36,843 nt of DNA, from IMG/VR virus record IMGVR_UViG_2529292736_000005, one strand, 5' to 3'. This DNA is from a virus (taxonomy: Duplodnaviria; Heunggongvirae; Uroviricota; Caudoviricetes). The notes under the pieces were generated by a model that had not been told where the DNA came from, did not search any database, and saw nothing but the letters and a program-made list of their open reading frames with translations. Positions 5,642 through 11,016 of the stretch are shown in pieces; position 1 is the first letter of the stretch, and every line of letters begins with the position of its first letter. The position numbers and the translations under genes were made by a program.

Positions 5642-6144
5642 GCATCAGAACCTACGCAGTGAATTGCAATGACGCATGGCTAAACACCGAAGGTGATGAC
5701 ATCTCCGGCTCATACGTTAAGTACAAAGACCATCAGGAAGTGGTTGCCGCTCTTGAGGCCAAGTGCGCGGCGCTGACAGCGGAGAATGCGGGAATAAAGT
5801 CTGCAATTCCAGAATCACGGGATATTGAGGATGACAATGACAATATGGATGACGTATCTCTCGCGGAAGACTTCGGGTTCAATCATGCAATAGAACGGAT
5901 GAGGAGACAGATACCTGAAACGCCAACCACTGATGCTTTCCTGGCTGAAGTCCGGGCGCAGGGGGTGGATGCTGCTATAGAAGCTGCAAAAAATCTGGTG
6001 GCCCAAGAATATGAGTATAAGGATTTCAAAGCGGCGCAGAGTGATTGCTGTATGCACCCTGGTTCAGACCTGGTAGGGAAGGTTGAAATGACTGAGTGGT
6101 TAGTTGACTTTGCTGCCCAGCTTCGCAAAGGAGGCAACCAGTGA
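5638..6144 (+). CDS. hypothetical protein (168 aa)
   Basis: ORF track; ATGA start/stop overlap with the upstream ORF. Confidence 0.5.
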   Translation: MSIRTYAVNCNDAWLNTEGDDISGSYVKYKDHQEVVAALEAKCAALTAENAGIKSAIPESRDIEDDNDNMDDVSLAEDFGFNHAIERMRRQIPETPTTDAFLAEVRAQGVDAAIEAAKNLVAQEYEYKDFKAAQSDCCMHPGSDLVGKVEMTEWLVDFAAQLRKGGNQ

Positions 6145-6788
6145 GCGAAATTAATTACCAGTCACTGCGTGAGGTGGCGGAACGTGCAATTCCAGCAATG
6201 GAACGCCTGTTAATGTTGCCAGCTGATGATGATTTGTTAAGTGAACAGGAACTTAAAGATTACGGTGTGGATATTGATGCGCTCAATGCCTTCAAATTTC
6301 TGACCGGACCAGAAACCGTGCTGGCACTACTGGACGAACGGGAAAGAAACCAGCAATACATCAAACGCCGCGACCAGGAGAACGAGGATATTGCACTAAC
6401 GGTTGGGAAACTGCGTGTTGAGCTGGAAGCCGCAGAGAAGCGCAACGCAAAATTACAAAGCGAGAATGCATACATCCGCAACCGGTTCAAAGAGCTGGAC
6501 CTGTTAATCGGGAAAAACATTCTGGTCATGCAGGCTGCGATTATCGAATGGCAGGCAACTGGCGACGCTAAAAGCGGACTGGCATGGATTTATAACACAC
6601 TGTTTGGCCTAGGCGAATTGCCGGACGAATCTGAGAAAGATGCTCAGGCCTACTTTAATCGCAAATATGCACCGATTGACGAAAAGCTCATGGAGCTTCA
6701 CAAGTGGTTTTGGGAACAAAGTGAAGCCGAGCGCGCCGCTGGCATTCGCATCAAAGGAGAGGAGCATGGAAATAAAACCAGAGGATGA
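6141..6788 (+). CDS. Ead/Ea22-like protein (215 aa, coiled-coil rich)
   Basis: N-terminus MSEINYQSLREVAERA; GTG start after AAGGAGG. Confidence 0.55.
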   Translation: MSEINYQSLREVAERAIPAMERLLMLPADDDLLSEQELKDYGVDIDALNAFKFLTGPETVLALLDERERNQQYIKRRDQENEDIALTVGKLRVELEAAEKRNAKLQSENAYIRNRFKELDLLIGKNILVMQAAIIEWQATGDAKSGLAWIYNTLFGLGELPDESEKDAQAYFNRKYAPIDEKLMELHKWFWEQSEAERAAGIRIKGEEHGNKTRG

Positions 6789-7217: not shown

Positions 7218-7259
7218 ATGCGAAAATTCAAAATAATTATTGAAACGGGAATAGCCGGT
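7218..7259 (+). pseudogene. 5' part of a small acidic ORF disrupted by the IS66-family insertion
   Basis: ATG at 7218 after an RBS; 14 codons run exactly to the target duplication. Confidence 0.5.
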
Positions 7260-7344
7260 GTAACCGTCTCATTTAAACCGTCTTTCGCCTCCCTTTCCTG
7301 TTTCCGATACTAATGTCCATTTTCGCAGTAAAGGGACATTTAAG

Positions 7345-7995
7345 ATGAATGCACGAAAAGCGGTACTGGCAGACAATCCGGAATTGATCCTGCGTGTGCT
7401 ACAACTGAGATTTGACGAGTCACTGTCGTACCCGCGCATTTCTGCGCAGACCGGTATCAGCAAAACCGCCATTTTTTCTCTGGTGAGGCGATTTCACCAG
7501 GTATTCACTGACTGGCCTCTTTCCGGAGAATATTCCTGCGTGCAACTGGCCCGGGCTCTGTTCCCGGGGCGATACCCTTCAGCCCCGACAGTGACTCAGC
7601 CTGTGAAAACAGAGAAAATCCGCCGGAACCGATTTTCACCGGAGTTTAAATGGAGGCTTGTTCAGCAAACTCTTTTACCCGGTGCCTGTGTCGCACAAAT
7701 AGCTCGTGAGAACGGAATCAACGATAACCTGCTCTTTAACTGGCGGCATCTCTGGCGTAACGGCGGCCTGCAGCCGACCGGCGAACATGAAACATCGCTA
7801 CTTCCCGTGACGTTAACTCCGGAGCCGGATAATAAAATCCCGGCACCAGTGCAGATACCTGAACAGATAAATACACCGCCCGACAGTCTGTGCTGTGAGC
7901 TGGTTCTGCCGGCCGGAACTCTCAGGCTGAAAGGTGAACTGACACCGGCGTTATTACAGACACTTATCCGCGAAATGAAAGGGAGCAGCCACTAA
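7345..7995 (+). CDS. tnpA: IS66-family TnpA (orf1)
   Basis: ORF track; first ORF of a three-ORF IS66 layout. Confidence 0.75.
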   Translation: MNARKAVLADNPELILRVLQLRFDESLSYPRISAQTGISKTAIFSLVRRFHQVFTDWPLSGEYSCVQLARALFPGRYPSAPTVTQPVKTEKIRRNRFSPEFKWRLVQQTLLPGACVAQIARENGINDNLLFNWRHLWRNGGLQPTGEHETSLLPVTLTPEPDNKIPAPVQIPEQINTPPDSLCCELVLPAGTLRLKGELTPALLQTLIREMKGSSH

Positions 7996-8342
7996 TGATA
8001 TCTCTCCCTGCCGGTTCGCGTATCTGGCTGGTTGCCGGTATCACCGACATGCGAAATGGTTTTAACGGCCTGGCATCAAAAGTTCAGAACGTCCTGAAGG
8101 ATGACCCGTTCTCCGGGCATCTGTTCATCTTCCGCGGACGCCGGGGTGACCAGATAAAAGTGTTGTGGGCTGACAGTGACGGACTGTGCCTCTTCACCAA
8201 ACGCCTGGAGCGGGGCCGCTTCGTCTGGCCGGTTACCCGTGACGGCAAGGTGCACCTTACTCCGGCTCAGTTATCTATGCTTCTTGAAGGTATCAACTGG
8301 AAGCACCCGAAACGAACGGAACGCGCTGGCATCCGCATATAA
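7995..8342 (+). CDS. tnpB: IS66-family TnpB accessory protein (orf2)
   Basis: MISLPAGSRIWLVAGITDMRNGFNGLA... typical IS66 Orf2. Confidence 0.85.
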   Translation: MISLPAGSRIWLVAGITDMRNGFNGLASKVQNVLKDDPFSGHLFIFRGRRGDQIKVLWADSDGLCLFTKRLERGRFVWPVTRDGKVHLTPAQLSMLLEGINWKHPKRTERAGIRI

Positions 8343-8361
8343 CCCGTTGTAAAGTGAGGAT

Positions 8362-9933
8362 ATGGACACCTCACTTGCTCATGAGAACGCCCGCCTGCGG
8401 GCACTGTTGCAGACGCAACAGGACACCATACGCCAGATGGCTGAATACAACCGCCTGCTCTCACAGCGGGTGGCGGCTTATGCTTCCGAAATCAACCGGC
8501 TGAAGGCGCTGGTTGCGAAACTGCAACGTATGCAGTTCGGTAAAAGCTCAGAAAAACTTCGCGCTAAAACCGAACGGCAGATACAGGAAGCCCAGGAGCG
8601 AATCAGCGCACTTCAGGAAGAAATGGCGGAAACGCTGGGTGAGCAATATGACCCGGTACTGCCATCCGCCCTGCGCCAGTCTTCAGCCCGTAAGCCGTTA
8701 CCGGCCTCACTTCCCCGTGAAACCCGGGTCATCCGGCCGGAAGAGGAATGCTGCCCGGCCTGTGGTGGTGACCTCAGTCCTCTGGGGTGTGATGTGTCAG
8801 AGCAACTGGAGCTTATCAGCAGCGCTTTTAAGGTTATCGAAACACAACGTCCGAAACTGGCCTGTTGCCGGTGCGACCATATCGTGCAGGCACCAGTACC
8901 TTCAAAACCCATTGCACGCAGTTATGCCGGAGCGGGGCTTCTGGCTCATATCGTCACCGGGAAGTATGCAGACCATCTGCCGTTATACCGCCAGTCAGAA
9001 ATATACCTTCGTCAGGGCGTGGAACTGAGCCGCGCCACGCTGGGGCGCTGGACCGGTGCCGTTGCTGAACTGCTGGAGCCGCTGTATGACGTGCTGCGCC
9101 AGTATGTGCTGATGCCCGGTAAAGTCCATGCGGATGATATCCCCGTTCCGGTCCAGGAGCCGGGCAGTGGTAAAACAAGAACTGCCCGGCTGTGGGTCTA
9201 TGTCCGTGATGACCGTAACGCCGGTTCACAGATGCCCCCGGCGGTCTGGTTCGCGTACAGCCCGGACCGGAAAGGTATCCATCCACAGAATCACCTGGCC
9301 GGTTACAGCGGTGTGCTTCAGGCAGATGCTTACGGTGGTTACCGGGCGTTATACGAATCCGGCAGAATAACGGAAGCCGCGTGTATGGCCCATGCCCGGA
9401 GAAAAATCCACGATGTGCATGCAAGAGTGCCAACCGACATCACCACGGAAGCCCTGCAGCGTATCGGTGAACTGTATGTCATCGAGGCAGAAGTCTGGGG
9501 ATGTTCAGCAGAACAGCGTCTGGCAGCAAGAAAAGCCAGAGCGGCTCCACTGATGCAGTCACTGTATGACTGGATACAGGAACAGATGAAAACACTGTCG
9601 CGTCACTCGGATACGGCAAAAGCGTTCGCATACCTGCTGAAACAGTGGGAGGCCCTGAACGTGTACTGCAGTAATGGCTGGGTGGAAATCGACAACAACA
9701 TCGCAGAGAACGCCTTACGGGGAGTGGCCGTAGGCCGGAAAAACTGGCTCTTCGCGGGTTCCGACAGCGGTGGCGAACATGCGGCGGTGTTGTACTCGCT
9801 GATCGGCACATGCCGTCTGAACAATGTAGAGCCAGAAAAATGGCTGCGTTACGTTATTGAGCATATCCAGGACTGGCCGGCAAACCGGGTACGCGATCTG
9901 TTGCCCTGGAAAGTTGATCTGACTTCTCAGTAA
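8362..9933 (+). CDS. tnpC: IS66-family transposase TnpC (523 aa)
   Basis: N-terminal leucine-rich helix, CPACGG...CCRC zinc motif, DDE-type core. Confidence 0.85.
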
Positions 9934-9964
9934 ATATCAATACGGTTCTGGCGAGCCGCTTACG

Positions 9965-10312
9965 ATGAAAACACTGTCGCGTCACTCAGATACGGCAAAA
10001 GCGTTCGCATACCTGCTGAAACAGTGGGATGCACTGAACGTGTACTGCAGTAATGGCTGGGTGGAAATCGACAACAACATCGCAGAGAACGCCTTACGGG
10101 GAGTGGCCGTAGGCCGGAAAAACTGGATGTTCGCGGGTTCCGACAGCGGTGGTGAACATGCGGCGGTGTTGTACTCGCTGATCGGCACATGCCGTCTGAA
10201 CAATGTGGAGCCAGAAAAGTGGCTGCGCTACGTCATTGAACATATCCAGGACTGGCCGGCAAACCGGGTACGCGATCTGTTGCCCTGGAAAGTTGATCTG
10301 AGCTCTCAGTAA
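9965..10312 (+). pseudogene. 3' fragment of a second, diverged IS66-family tnpC
   Basis: 9964-10342 aligns with 9585-9963 with about 14 substitutions by eye (~96% identity). Confidence 0.7.
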
Positions 10313-10350
10313 ATATCAATACGGTTCTGACGAGCCGCTTACTAGCCGGT

Positions 10351-10491
10351 GGAGATTTCGAGGATGAATTCGAAGTGGATGATGATGCAACACCAGATGA
10401 AATACAGGATGAAGCTAAAGATATTTTCTTTAACTACTGCAATTACTCATACCACGAAATAAAAGACGAAGAGGAAGAACAAAATGGCTGA
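10351..10491 (+). pseudogene. 3' part of the small acidic ORF disrupted by the IS
   Basis: In frame with 7218-7259 once the IS and one repeat copy are removed; restored product is 60 aa. Confidence 0.5.
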
Positions 10492-10660
10492 TTTTGGTTC
10501 AACTAAATATAACGCCAGTTTTGAAGAATGGCATGAACTGTTAATGGATTATGCAGAGTTACGCGGTGGAAGTGCCGCTGATGCTGAAGCATGGCGTGAT
10601 GATTATGAAGCAGGGAAAACACCGGTCGAAGCATATTGTGATGAGTGGGGCGATGAATGA
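10484..10660 (+). CDS. hypothetical small protein (58 aa)
   Basis: Own translation MADFGSTKYNASFEEWHELLMDYAELRGG...; stop overlaps the next start. Confidence 0.4.
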   Translation: MADFGSTKYNASFEEWHELLMDYAELRGGSAADAEAWRDDYEAGKTPVEAYCDEWGDE

Positions 10661-11016
10661 GCGAGATTAATTATCAGGAAGGGCATGAAAAGGCAGGGCA
10701 GGCAAAACCAGTGGCATGGCGATATCGCTACGTGAAAAAAGGCGTTACAGACTTTCAGGGGAAGCAGTGGGTTGGTGACTGGAAATATGTCCCGACAAAA
10801 GAGGATTGCAACGACAGACCGAACTATGAAATTCAGGCGTTATTCACTGCCCCGCCTGTGCCACTGACACCAGAAGGATTGATTAAAGCAGTGCGTTTCT
10901 ATGAACAGGTAAAGCGTGAGAATCCGCCAGTCGAAACCGGAGCATGGAAAGACGCTGTTGACTGGGTGCTCAAAGAGGCTTGCCAGTCTGTAAACATTGG
11001 CATCAAAGGAGAGTGA
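10657..11016 (+). CDS. Ead/Ea22-like protein (119 aa)
   Basis: N-terminus MSEINYQEGHEKA; ORF track. Confidence 0.5.
   Translation: MSEINYQEGHEKAGQAKPVAWRYRYVKKGVTDFQGKQWVGDWKYVPTKEDCNDRPNYEIQALFTAPPVPLTPEGLIKAVRFYEQVKRENPPVETGAWKDAVDWVLKEACQSVNIGIKGE

Follow-up and report, generated by a model that had tools for sequence, protein, structure and literature searches.

Between positions 7,218 and 10,491 of a stretch of 36,843 nucleotides (nt) from a Caudoviricetes record in IMG/VR (IMGVR_UViG_2529292736_000005; the whole stretch is called the window below), a small prophage gene is interrupted by an insertion sequence (IS) of the IS66 family that has one left end and two right ends. Where did the extra right end come from, does the whole 3,083-bp package (the composite) move as one unit, and how was it put together? 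In the reading that we consider very probable, the composite is a three-ended mobile unit in which a complete IS679-type element is joined to the right end of its relative ISCro1, and it probably goes back to an insertion into ISCro1.

Origin of the extra right end

The 379 bp that follow the complete element (9964-10342) were aligned with the last 379 bp of that element (9585-9963). An original prediction, made from the letters of the window without database searches, had counted about 14 substitutions by eye, and the count was exact: 379 of 379 positions aligned without gaps and with 14 mismatches (96.3% identity; self-BLAST E=3e-179), and the homology of the repeat ends exactly at 9584/9963. 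The terminus of the inner element at 9963 (...GAGCCGCTTAC) returns at 10342 with one change in the last 20 nt, as expected for the second intact right end that had been claimed. The extra end had also been called nested, which it is not, since it is appended outside the complete element and not inside it. It had further been described as a copy of the last 379 bp of the element itself; the homology stands and the source does not. The outer segment equals ISCro1 2321-2699 exactly, and comparison with a 2,699-bp ISCro1 copy showed that all 14 differences between the inner and outer segments are ISCro1 alleles. Because of this complete identity and these alleles, the extra end is, judged by its sequence, an unchanged right end from the sister element ISCro1 and not a decayed duplicate of the element's own end. 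ISCro1 is very common, and copies that match the fragment with 99% identity or more occur in 1,860 E. coli records, among them ISCro1 copies of composite-bearing strains. One could imagine instead that the last 379 bp of the element were duplicated in tandem on the spot and that one copy then diverged. This would fit two colinear segments of 96.3% identity, but we give it practically no credence: it is refuted by the ISCro1 identity and alleles of the outer segment, and with 98.6-100% identity among the composites at five sites (see below) there was no time for one arm alone to diverge by 3.7%.

On all sequence criteria that were tested, the complete part belongs to the IS66 family, and within it to the IS679 type. 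It has the gene order tnpA-tnpB-tnpC with coupled tnpA and tnpB frames (the tnpA stop at 7993-7995 and the tnpB ATG at 7995-7997 share one base, TAATG), GTAA ends in the range of about 20-30 bp and an 8-bp duplication. The predicted IS66-type unit of three genes ending at 9963 was borne out by the Pfam set of the family (PF01527, PF05717, and PF03050, also PF13817, PF13005, and PF13007) and by NF038385, NF033819, and NF033517 of NCBIfam, each above its cut-off. The terminal inverted repeats are imperfect, 25 bp long and begin with GTAA, and the reverse complement of the right ends reads GTAAGCGGCTCG(C/T)CAGAACCGTATT. IS679 is a member of the IS66 family from plasmid pB171 of enteropathogenic E. 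coli. The inner element resembles it in its 2,704 bp, in the tnpA-tnpB-tnpC order with the TAATG overlap, in the imperfect GTAA ends of about 25 bp and in the 8-bp duplication; its identity of 95.8%, gap-free, refers to genomic copies whose transposase has the NCBI label 'IS679 family' and not to the ISfinder or pB171 reference. It differs in that the transposase of the composite is labelled only 'IS66 family' by NCBI and in that a second right end is appended.

ISCro1 is an element of 2,699 bp that makes 8-bp duplications (PMC12115866) and has expanded in Citrobacter rodentium (PMC3072379). To the right of about position 600 the inner element shares about 97% of its bases with canonical 2,699-bp ISCro1; overall the identity is 86.5%. 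The divergence is strong in the first 600 bp or so of the inner element, which hold the region next to the left terminal inverted repeat (IRL) as well as the 5' half of tnpA, and indels occur within the first 400 bp. Because of this overall identity and this divergence, the complete element is not ISCro1; identity to ISCro1 (100%) was found only in the appended 379 bp. More generally, the right 2.1 kb of IS679-type elements and ISCro1 are about 97% identical and their tnpB products are identical (WP_000624622.1), whereas the left 600 bp or so are very different (window 7260-7860 against 508-1100 of the ISCro1-bearing record L015), a contrast in sequence that points to modular exchange of the left end.

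The appended segment holds a 115-aa open reading frame (ORF), copies of which on plasmids are annotated by NCBI as an incomplete pseudogene, and the 379 bp are most likely a passenger without a function of their own. It is very unlikely that a putative 115-aa product, made from read-through tnpC transcripts, acts as a truncated-transposase regulator by multimer poisoning or biased choice of ends; if this were true, such a regulator might help the composite to persist and spread in one lineage of enterotoxigenic E. coli (ETEC).

Copies at five sites and movement as one unit

The 3,083-bp composite was found in 13 plasmid records from nine human ETEC isolates of several countries (TW10590, TW11681, WS1933D, WS4437A-1, 504239, 300709, 67-1, S1-NGR-02-A, and E562). 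With the short junction query used, ordinary copies match in two joined pieces, and only rows that match in a single piece (E=2e-77) were taken as composites. Each of the five composite sites, the window included (Table 1), has a perfect 8-bp duplication that abuts the IRL and the outer right terminal inverted repeat (IRR); in the window this is the repeat that had been predicted to flank the 3,083-bp unit. The internal junction, in which GCTTAC at the end of the inner IRR is followed directly by GATGAAAA, is identical at all five sites. Because the same composite stands at no fewer than four further sites, in F-type plasmids of human ETEC, each time with its own perfect 8-bp duplication, the sequences identify the 3,083-bp package as one that transposes as a unit, from the IRL to the outer IRR, as the original prediction had proposed.

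The window composite is 100% identical to the copy in pTW10590_102, and most of the others differ from it at 6-9 positions. Empty sites were found as well: the GTTAATAT site is unbroken in pWS1933D_83 (L005), and L005 and L001, a plasmid with the composite at TCTGATTA, each show the insertion site of the other uninterrupted. The two composites of strain WS4437A-1 differ from the window copy in the same 44 places, of which 38 lie within composite positions 1681-2287, and occupy different sites; the unit therefore moved in that strain after it had gained this patch. An assembly artefact, in which repeats of two IS variants were collapsed or expanded, comes to mind since IS66-family copies are numerous in these genomes, but the same structure recurs in all 13 plasmid records and the picture given by flanking duplications and empty sites is consistent, so that the chance of such an artefact is close to nil.

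Differences between the plasmid composites (L001-L013) are clustered, with 6 single-nucleotide polymorphisms (SNPs) in 142 bp (composite 1129-1270, window 8388-8529) and, in the WS4437A-1 patch, 38 SNPs in about 600 bp (window 8940-9546). Such clusters are typical of gene conversion with other IS66-family copies, as judged from the pattern, and not of point mutation. One composite of p504239_155 (L002) has hybrid flanks, the left one from the GTTAATAT site and the right one from the TCTGATTA site, as would be expected from homologous recombination between two copies. In this 156-kb plasmid the psiB-psiA-DUF5431 segment is present twice, and the hybrid flanks together with the doubled segment indicate IS-mediated recombination or cointegration of two F-type plasmids.

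Recombination between copies takes place, as the mixed flanks of L002 and the substitution patches indicate, and the original prediction had named recombination between two diverged copies as another way to the composite. In this account the structure would come from homologous recombination of two diverged IS copies, or from assembly in situ at the prophage site (ISCro1, then a second insertion and a deletion), and would not have transposed as a unit. It is extremely unlikely to be correct. Homologous exchange cannot make a junction in which the exact IRR terminus is joined to internal IS sequence; the same junction at five sites, each with its own duplication, would need the same rare events five times; and the window copy is identical to that of pTW10590_102.

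The inner right end may have stayed in use beside the outer one. In p504239_155 (L007), beside two composites, there is a simple 2,704-bp copy that ends at the inner terminus and has a duplication of its own, GGGCAGCA. Its sequence is also that of the inner part of both composites, and either form may descend from the other; the copy is consistent with a usable inner IRR and does not prove it. Simple IS66-family copies with 8-bp duplications were seen in several cases (GGGCAGCA, TGTTTTTG, and GATGTATC). In the leading region of F-type plasmids, between hok and an ssb-like gene (L001, about 1690-1760), three independent IS66-family insertions lie within about 30 bp, namely composites at TCCTGTTC (L005) and at TCTGATTA (L001 and others) and an oppositely oriented simple 2,704-bp copy at TGCTGCCC (L007), which suggests that the interval is a regional insertion hotspot.

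The composite junction was absent from the GTDB species-representative genomes (one per species) and from JGI metagenomes, and the phage records are without the composite and hold only simple IS66-family copies. A chromosomal locus of strain 300709 (H10) was rejected as a composite, being a simple copy interrupted by IS1 and IS3.

Formation of the composite

Because the last base of a transposon end is joined to internal sequence of another IS, the junction bears the mark of a transposition event and not that of homologous exchange or slippage. The composite would have arisen once. In a first step, an IS679-like element would most probably have inserted into a resident ISCro1 at GATGAAAA (ISCro1 2321-2328), in the same orientation and 379 bp from the right end; in a second, a later transposition would have paired the IRL of the inner element with the IRR of the host ISCro1. 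The transposition proteins of the inner element would bring together the IRL and the outer IRR, that of ISCro1, and the 3,083 bp would insert as a whole, with the 8-bp duplication typical of the family. That insertion of one IS into another does occur in this group is shown by the chromosome of E. coli TUM9757 (L019 562-5923), where ISCro1 1-20 is followed by a complete ISCro1 and then by ISCro1 13-95, with the target-site duplication (TSD) TTTAAACC inside the IRL; this nested array then continues with an IS679-like element truncated by IS21.

Some points weigh against an origin and a mobility of this kind. The ancestral nested donor, sought as the left part of ISCro1 (...CAGCAACAGATGAAAA) joined to GTAACCGTCTCA (junction ...CAGCAACAGATGAAAA/GTAACCGTCTCATTT), was not found in 5,426 complete E. 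coli genomes, in GTDB (one genome per species) or in JGI metagenomes, and for this reason we can only infer the formation step. The insertion in the window is known from one record only, a single IMG/VR contig (IMGVR_UViG_2529292736_000004) that overlaps the window. The assignment of the mobilising proteins and the relative use of the two right ends are, moreover, read from sequence only. Four rows of full coverage that came up in the donor search of E. coli genomes were rejected, being head-to-tail pairs and not the donor junction.

The same junction is predicted by an adjacent deletion, in which an IS679-like element and ISCro1 stand head to tail, the right end of the former attacks position 2321 of the latter intramolecularly, and the DNA between them is lost. 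Head-to-tail pairs of IS66-family elements do exist (22 E. coli records have pairs less than about 600 bp apart), and in pWS4437A1_42 (L013/L018) nothing but an 8-bp duplication common to both lies between a composite and ISCro1. We nevertheless consider this route unlikely: a precursor with matching endpoints was not found, and the nested route needs no new assumption, since a nested insertion with its duplication is seen directly in L019. We know of no documentation of adjacent deletions by IS66-family elements.

In its layout the composite corresponds to an experimental construct made with IS679. Han et al. (2001) reportedly found that an intact IS679 together with an IRR-only fragment transposes as a unit, with an 8-bp duplication and a need for tnpA, tnpB, and tnpC; their construct, Tn679, is said to have consisted of intact IS679, a marker and an IRR-only IS679 fragment. 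The composite is like Tn679 in that a complete element gives the proteins and the IRL, a distal IRR-only fragment gives the right end, and movement produces an 8-bp duplication. It is different in that it is natural, has no cargo between the right ends and takes its distal end from a sister IS. With units of the ISEcp1 type and compound transposons it shares the carriage of DNA past the normal right end by means of a more distal end. Unlike in ISEcp1, that distal end is a genuine IRR of the family and not a weak surrogate sequence, and the passenger is IS debris. Nor is the composite a compound transposon, as it has one complete IS and one 379-bp end fragment without cargo. No description of the natural composite variant was found in the searchable literature, a search that ISfinder lies outside.

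The composite is a structural variant of a well-known family, the naturally occurring and cargo-less counterpart of the experimental design of an IS plus an IRR-only fragment, and will not surprise a specialist; it changes nothing fundamental in the picture of the family. What it adds is a natural case, at five sites, of an IS66-family element that borrows a right end farther out from a sister element and uses it. It is through such use of a distal end that insertion sequences start to take additional DNA along. Acceptance of an ISCro1 end by IS679-type proteins would imply cross-mobilisation among co-resident members of the family. The exact joining of the IRR to GATGAAAA also marks a lineage, which comprises a group of human ETEC plasmids and now one prophage.

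Target gene and related arrangements

The coordinates of the features of the window, with the five duplications that flank composites, are given in Table 1.

Table 1. Features of the interrupted locus in the window and target-site duplications of the composite
Feature	Position or record	Strand	Basis or remark
First 14 codons (5' part) of the 60-aa DUF7167 prophage gene, disrupted	7218-7259	+	ORF restored by joining 7259 to 10351; Pfam PF23768 E=1.2e-14
Left copy of 8-bp target-site duplication TAGCCGGT	7252-7259		Single copy in empty sites of other genomes
Complete 2,704-bp IS66-family element, IS679 type	7260-9963	+	Gap-free, 95.8% to 2,704-bp elements with NCBI 'IS679 family' transposase
Left terminal inverted repeat (IRL) GTAACCGTCTCATTTAAACCGTCTT	7260-7284	+	17-18 of 25 positions match reverse complement of right ends
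tnpA, 216 aa, helix-turn-helix accessory protein	7345-7995	+	PF01527 HTH_Tnp_1 E=5.6e-16; NF038385 IS66_access_TnpA E=1.9e-85
tnpB, 115 aa	7995-8342	+	PF05717 TnpB_IS66 E=4.7e-40; NF033819
tnpC, 523 aa, DDE transposase	8362-9933	+	PF03050 DDE_Tnp_IS66 E=1.7e-102; zf-IS66, LZ_Tnp_IS66, IS66_C; NF033517
Inner right terminal inverted repeat (IRR of IS679-like element)	9939-9963	-	Simple 2,704-bp copy in L007 ends at same terminus
379-bp right-end fragment of ISCro1 (ISCro1 2321-2699)	9964-10342	+	100% identical to last 379 bp of 2,699-bp ISCro1 copy
115-aa ORF, C-terminal part of ISCro1 TnpC, internal Met start directly after junction	9965-10312	+	DDE_Tnp_IS66 profile positions 222-283 and IS66_C
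Outer right terminal inverted repeat (ISCro1 IRR)	10318-10342	-	8-bp duplications abut outer, not inner, end at five sites
Right copy of 8-bp target-site duplication TAGCCGGT	10343-10350		Read in window
3' part of disrupted DUF7167 gene	10351-10491	+	Stop overlaps start of next prophage ORF (ATG 10484)
TAGCCGGT duplication	Window		DUF7167 gene of lambdoid prophage
TCTGATTA duplication	L001, L003, L004, L006, L009-L012		Eight plasmids
TCCTGTTC duplication	pWS1933D_83 (L005)		12 bp upstream of TCTGATTA site
GTTAATAT duplication	p504239_155 (L007)		In hok/DUF5431 region
GATTATAC duplication	pWS4437A1_42 (L013)		

Removal of the composite and one copy of the duplication had been predicted to restore a continuous small acidic ORF, and the joined parts indeed encode 60 aa with 20 Asp or Glu and 5 Lys or Arg residues (pI 4.05) that belong to the Pfam family DUF7167. 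The check proposed with that prediction, a search for the empty site, succeeded: an 800-bp reconstruction is unbroken in 1,204 of the 5,426 complete E. coli genomes, with identity up to 99.8%. In the prophage of one of these genomes (L008), an intact 183-bp gene at 8359-8541 is annotated as a DUF7167 family protein; the prophage is lambdoid and colinear with the window to the left and right of the insertion, and the gene lies in its early region with ea22-like genes on one side and the rusA/Q region on the other. The window itself resembles lambdoid phages with a Q antiterminator and lysis genes. In it, the DUF7167 gene is split by 3 kb in the same orientation, inside the early-right gene string of the prophage. 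No terminator-like site was picked up on the plus strand in the element scan, from which polarity cannot be judged, and the promoter, terminator and repeat scans of the element gave nothing beyond chance. The insertion junction of the window was absent from all of the complete E. coli genomes. Three features make the insertion look recent: the composite matches a plasmid copy at 100%, its duplication is perfect, and the target shows no other damage.

Other IS66-family copies stand in close arrangements. In pWS4437A1_42 (L013 4675-4700; L018 75-100 and 2782-2797) the order is GATTATAC, composite, GATTATAC, ISCro1, GATTATAC, head to tail, and from the shared duplication it follows that one element inserted exactly into the 8 bp abutting the end of the other. 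In prophage gene gpU of E. coli O103:H2 strain 129 (L020 574-5981), a second ISCro1 copy, without its first 6 nt, comes immediately after a complete one; a single base distinguishes the two, and the TSD TACACGGG flanks the 5.39-kb pair. This pair is either another unit of an IS plus an extra right end that moved as one, or a product of dimerisation in situ. L013, L019, and L020 together show three events within about 20 bp of the tip of a resident IRL, which hints at insertion targeted to IS ends, in a sample whose query design favours such cases. In the afa/dr region of E. coli ST131, a '2,824-bp ISCro1' has been described, which exceeds the usual 2,699 bp by about 125 bp; in other strains the same hotspot holds a '118-bp insertion of unknown origin' (PMC8764528). 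The longer element may be another ISCro1 with extra terminal material.

Within the window, the ORFs at 6141-6788 and 10657-11016, which flank the insertion, share their first seven residues (MSEINYQ) and differ thereafter, a pattern typical, on sequence comparison, of mosaic ea22-like gene families.

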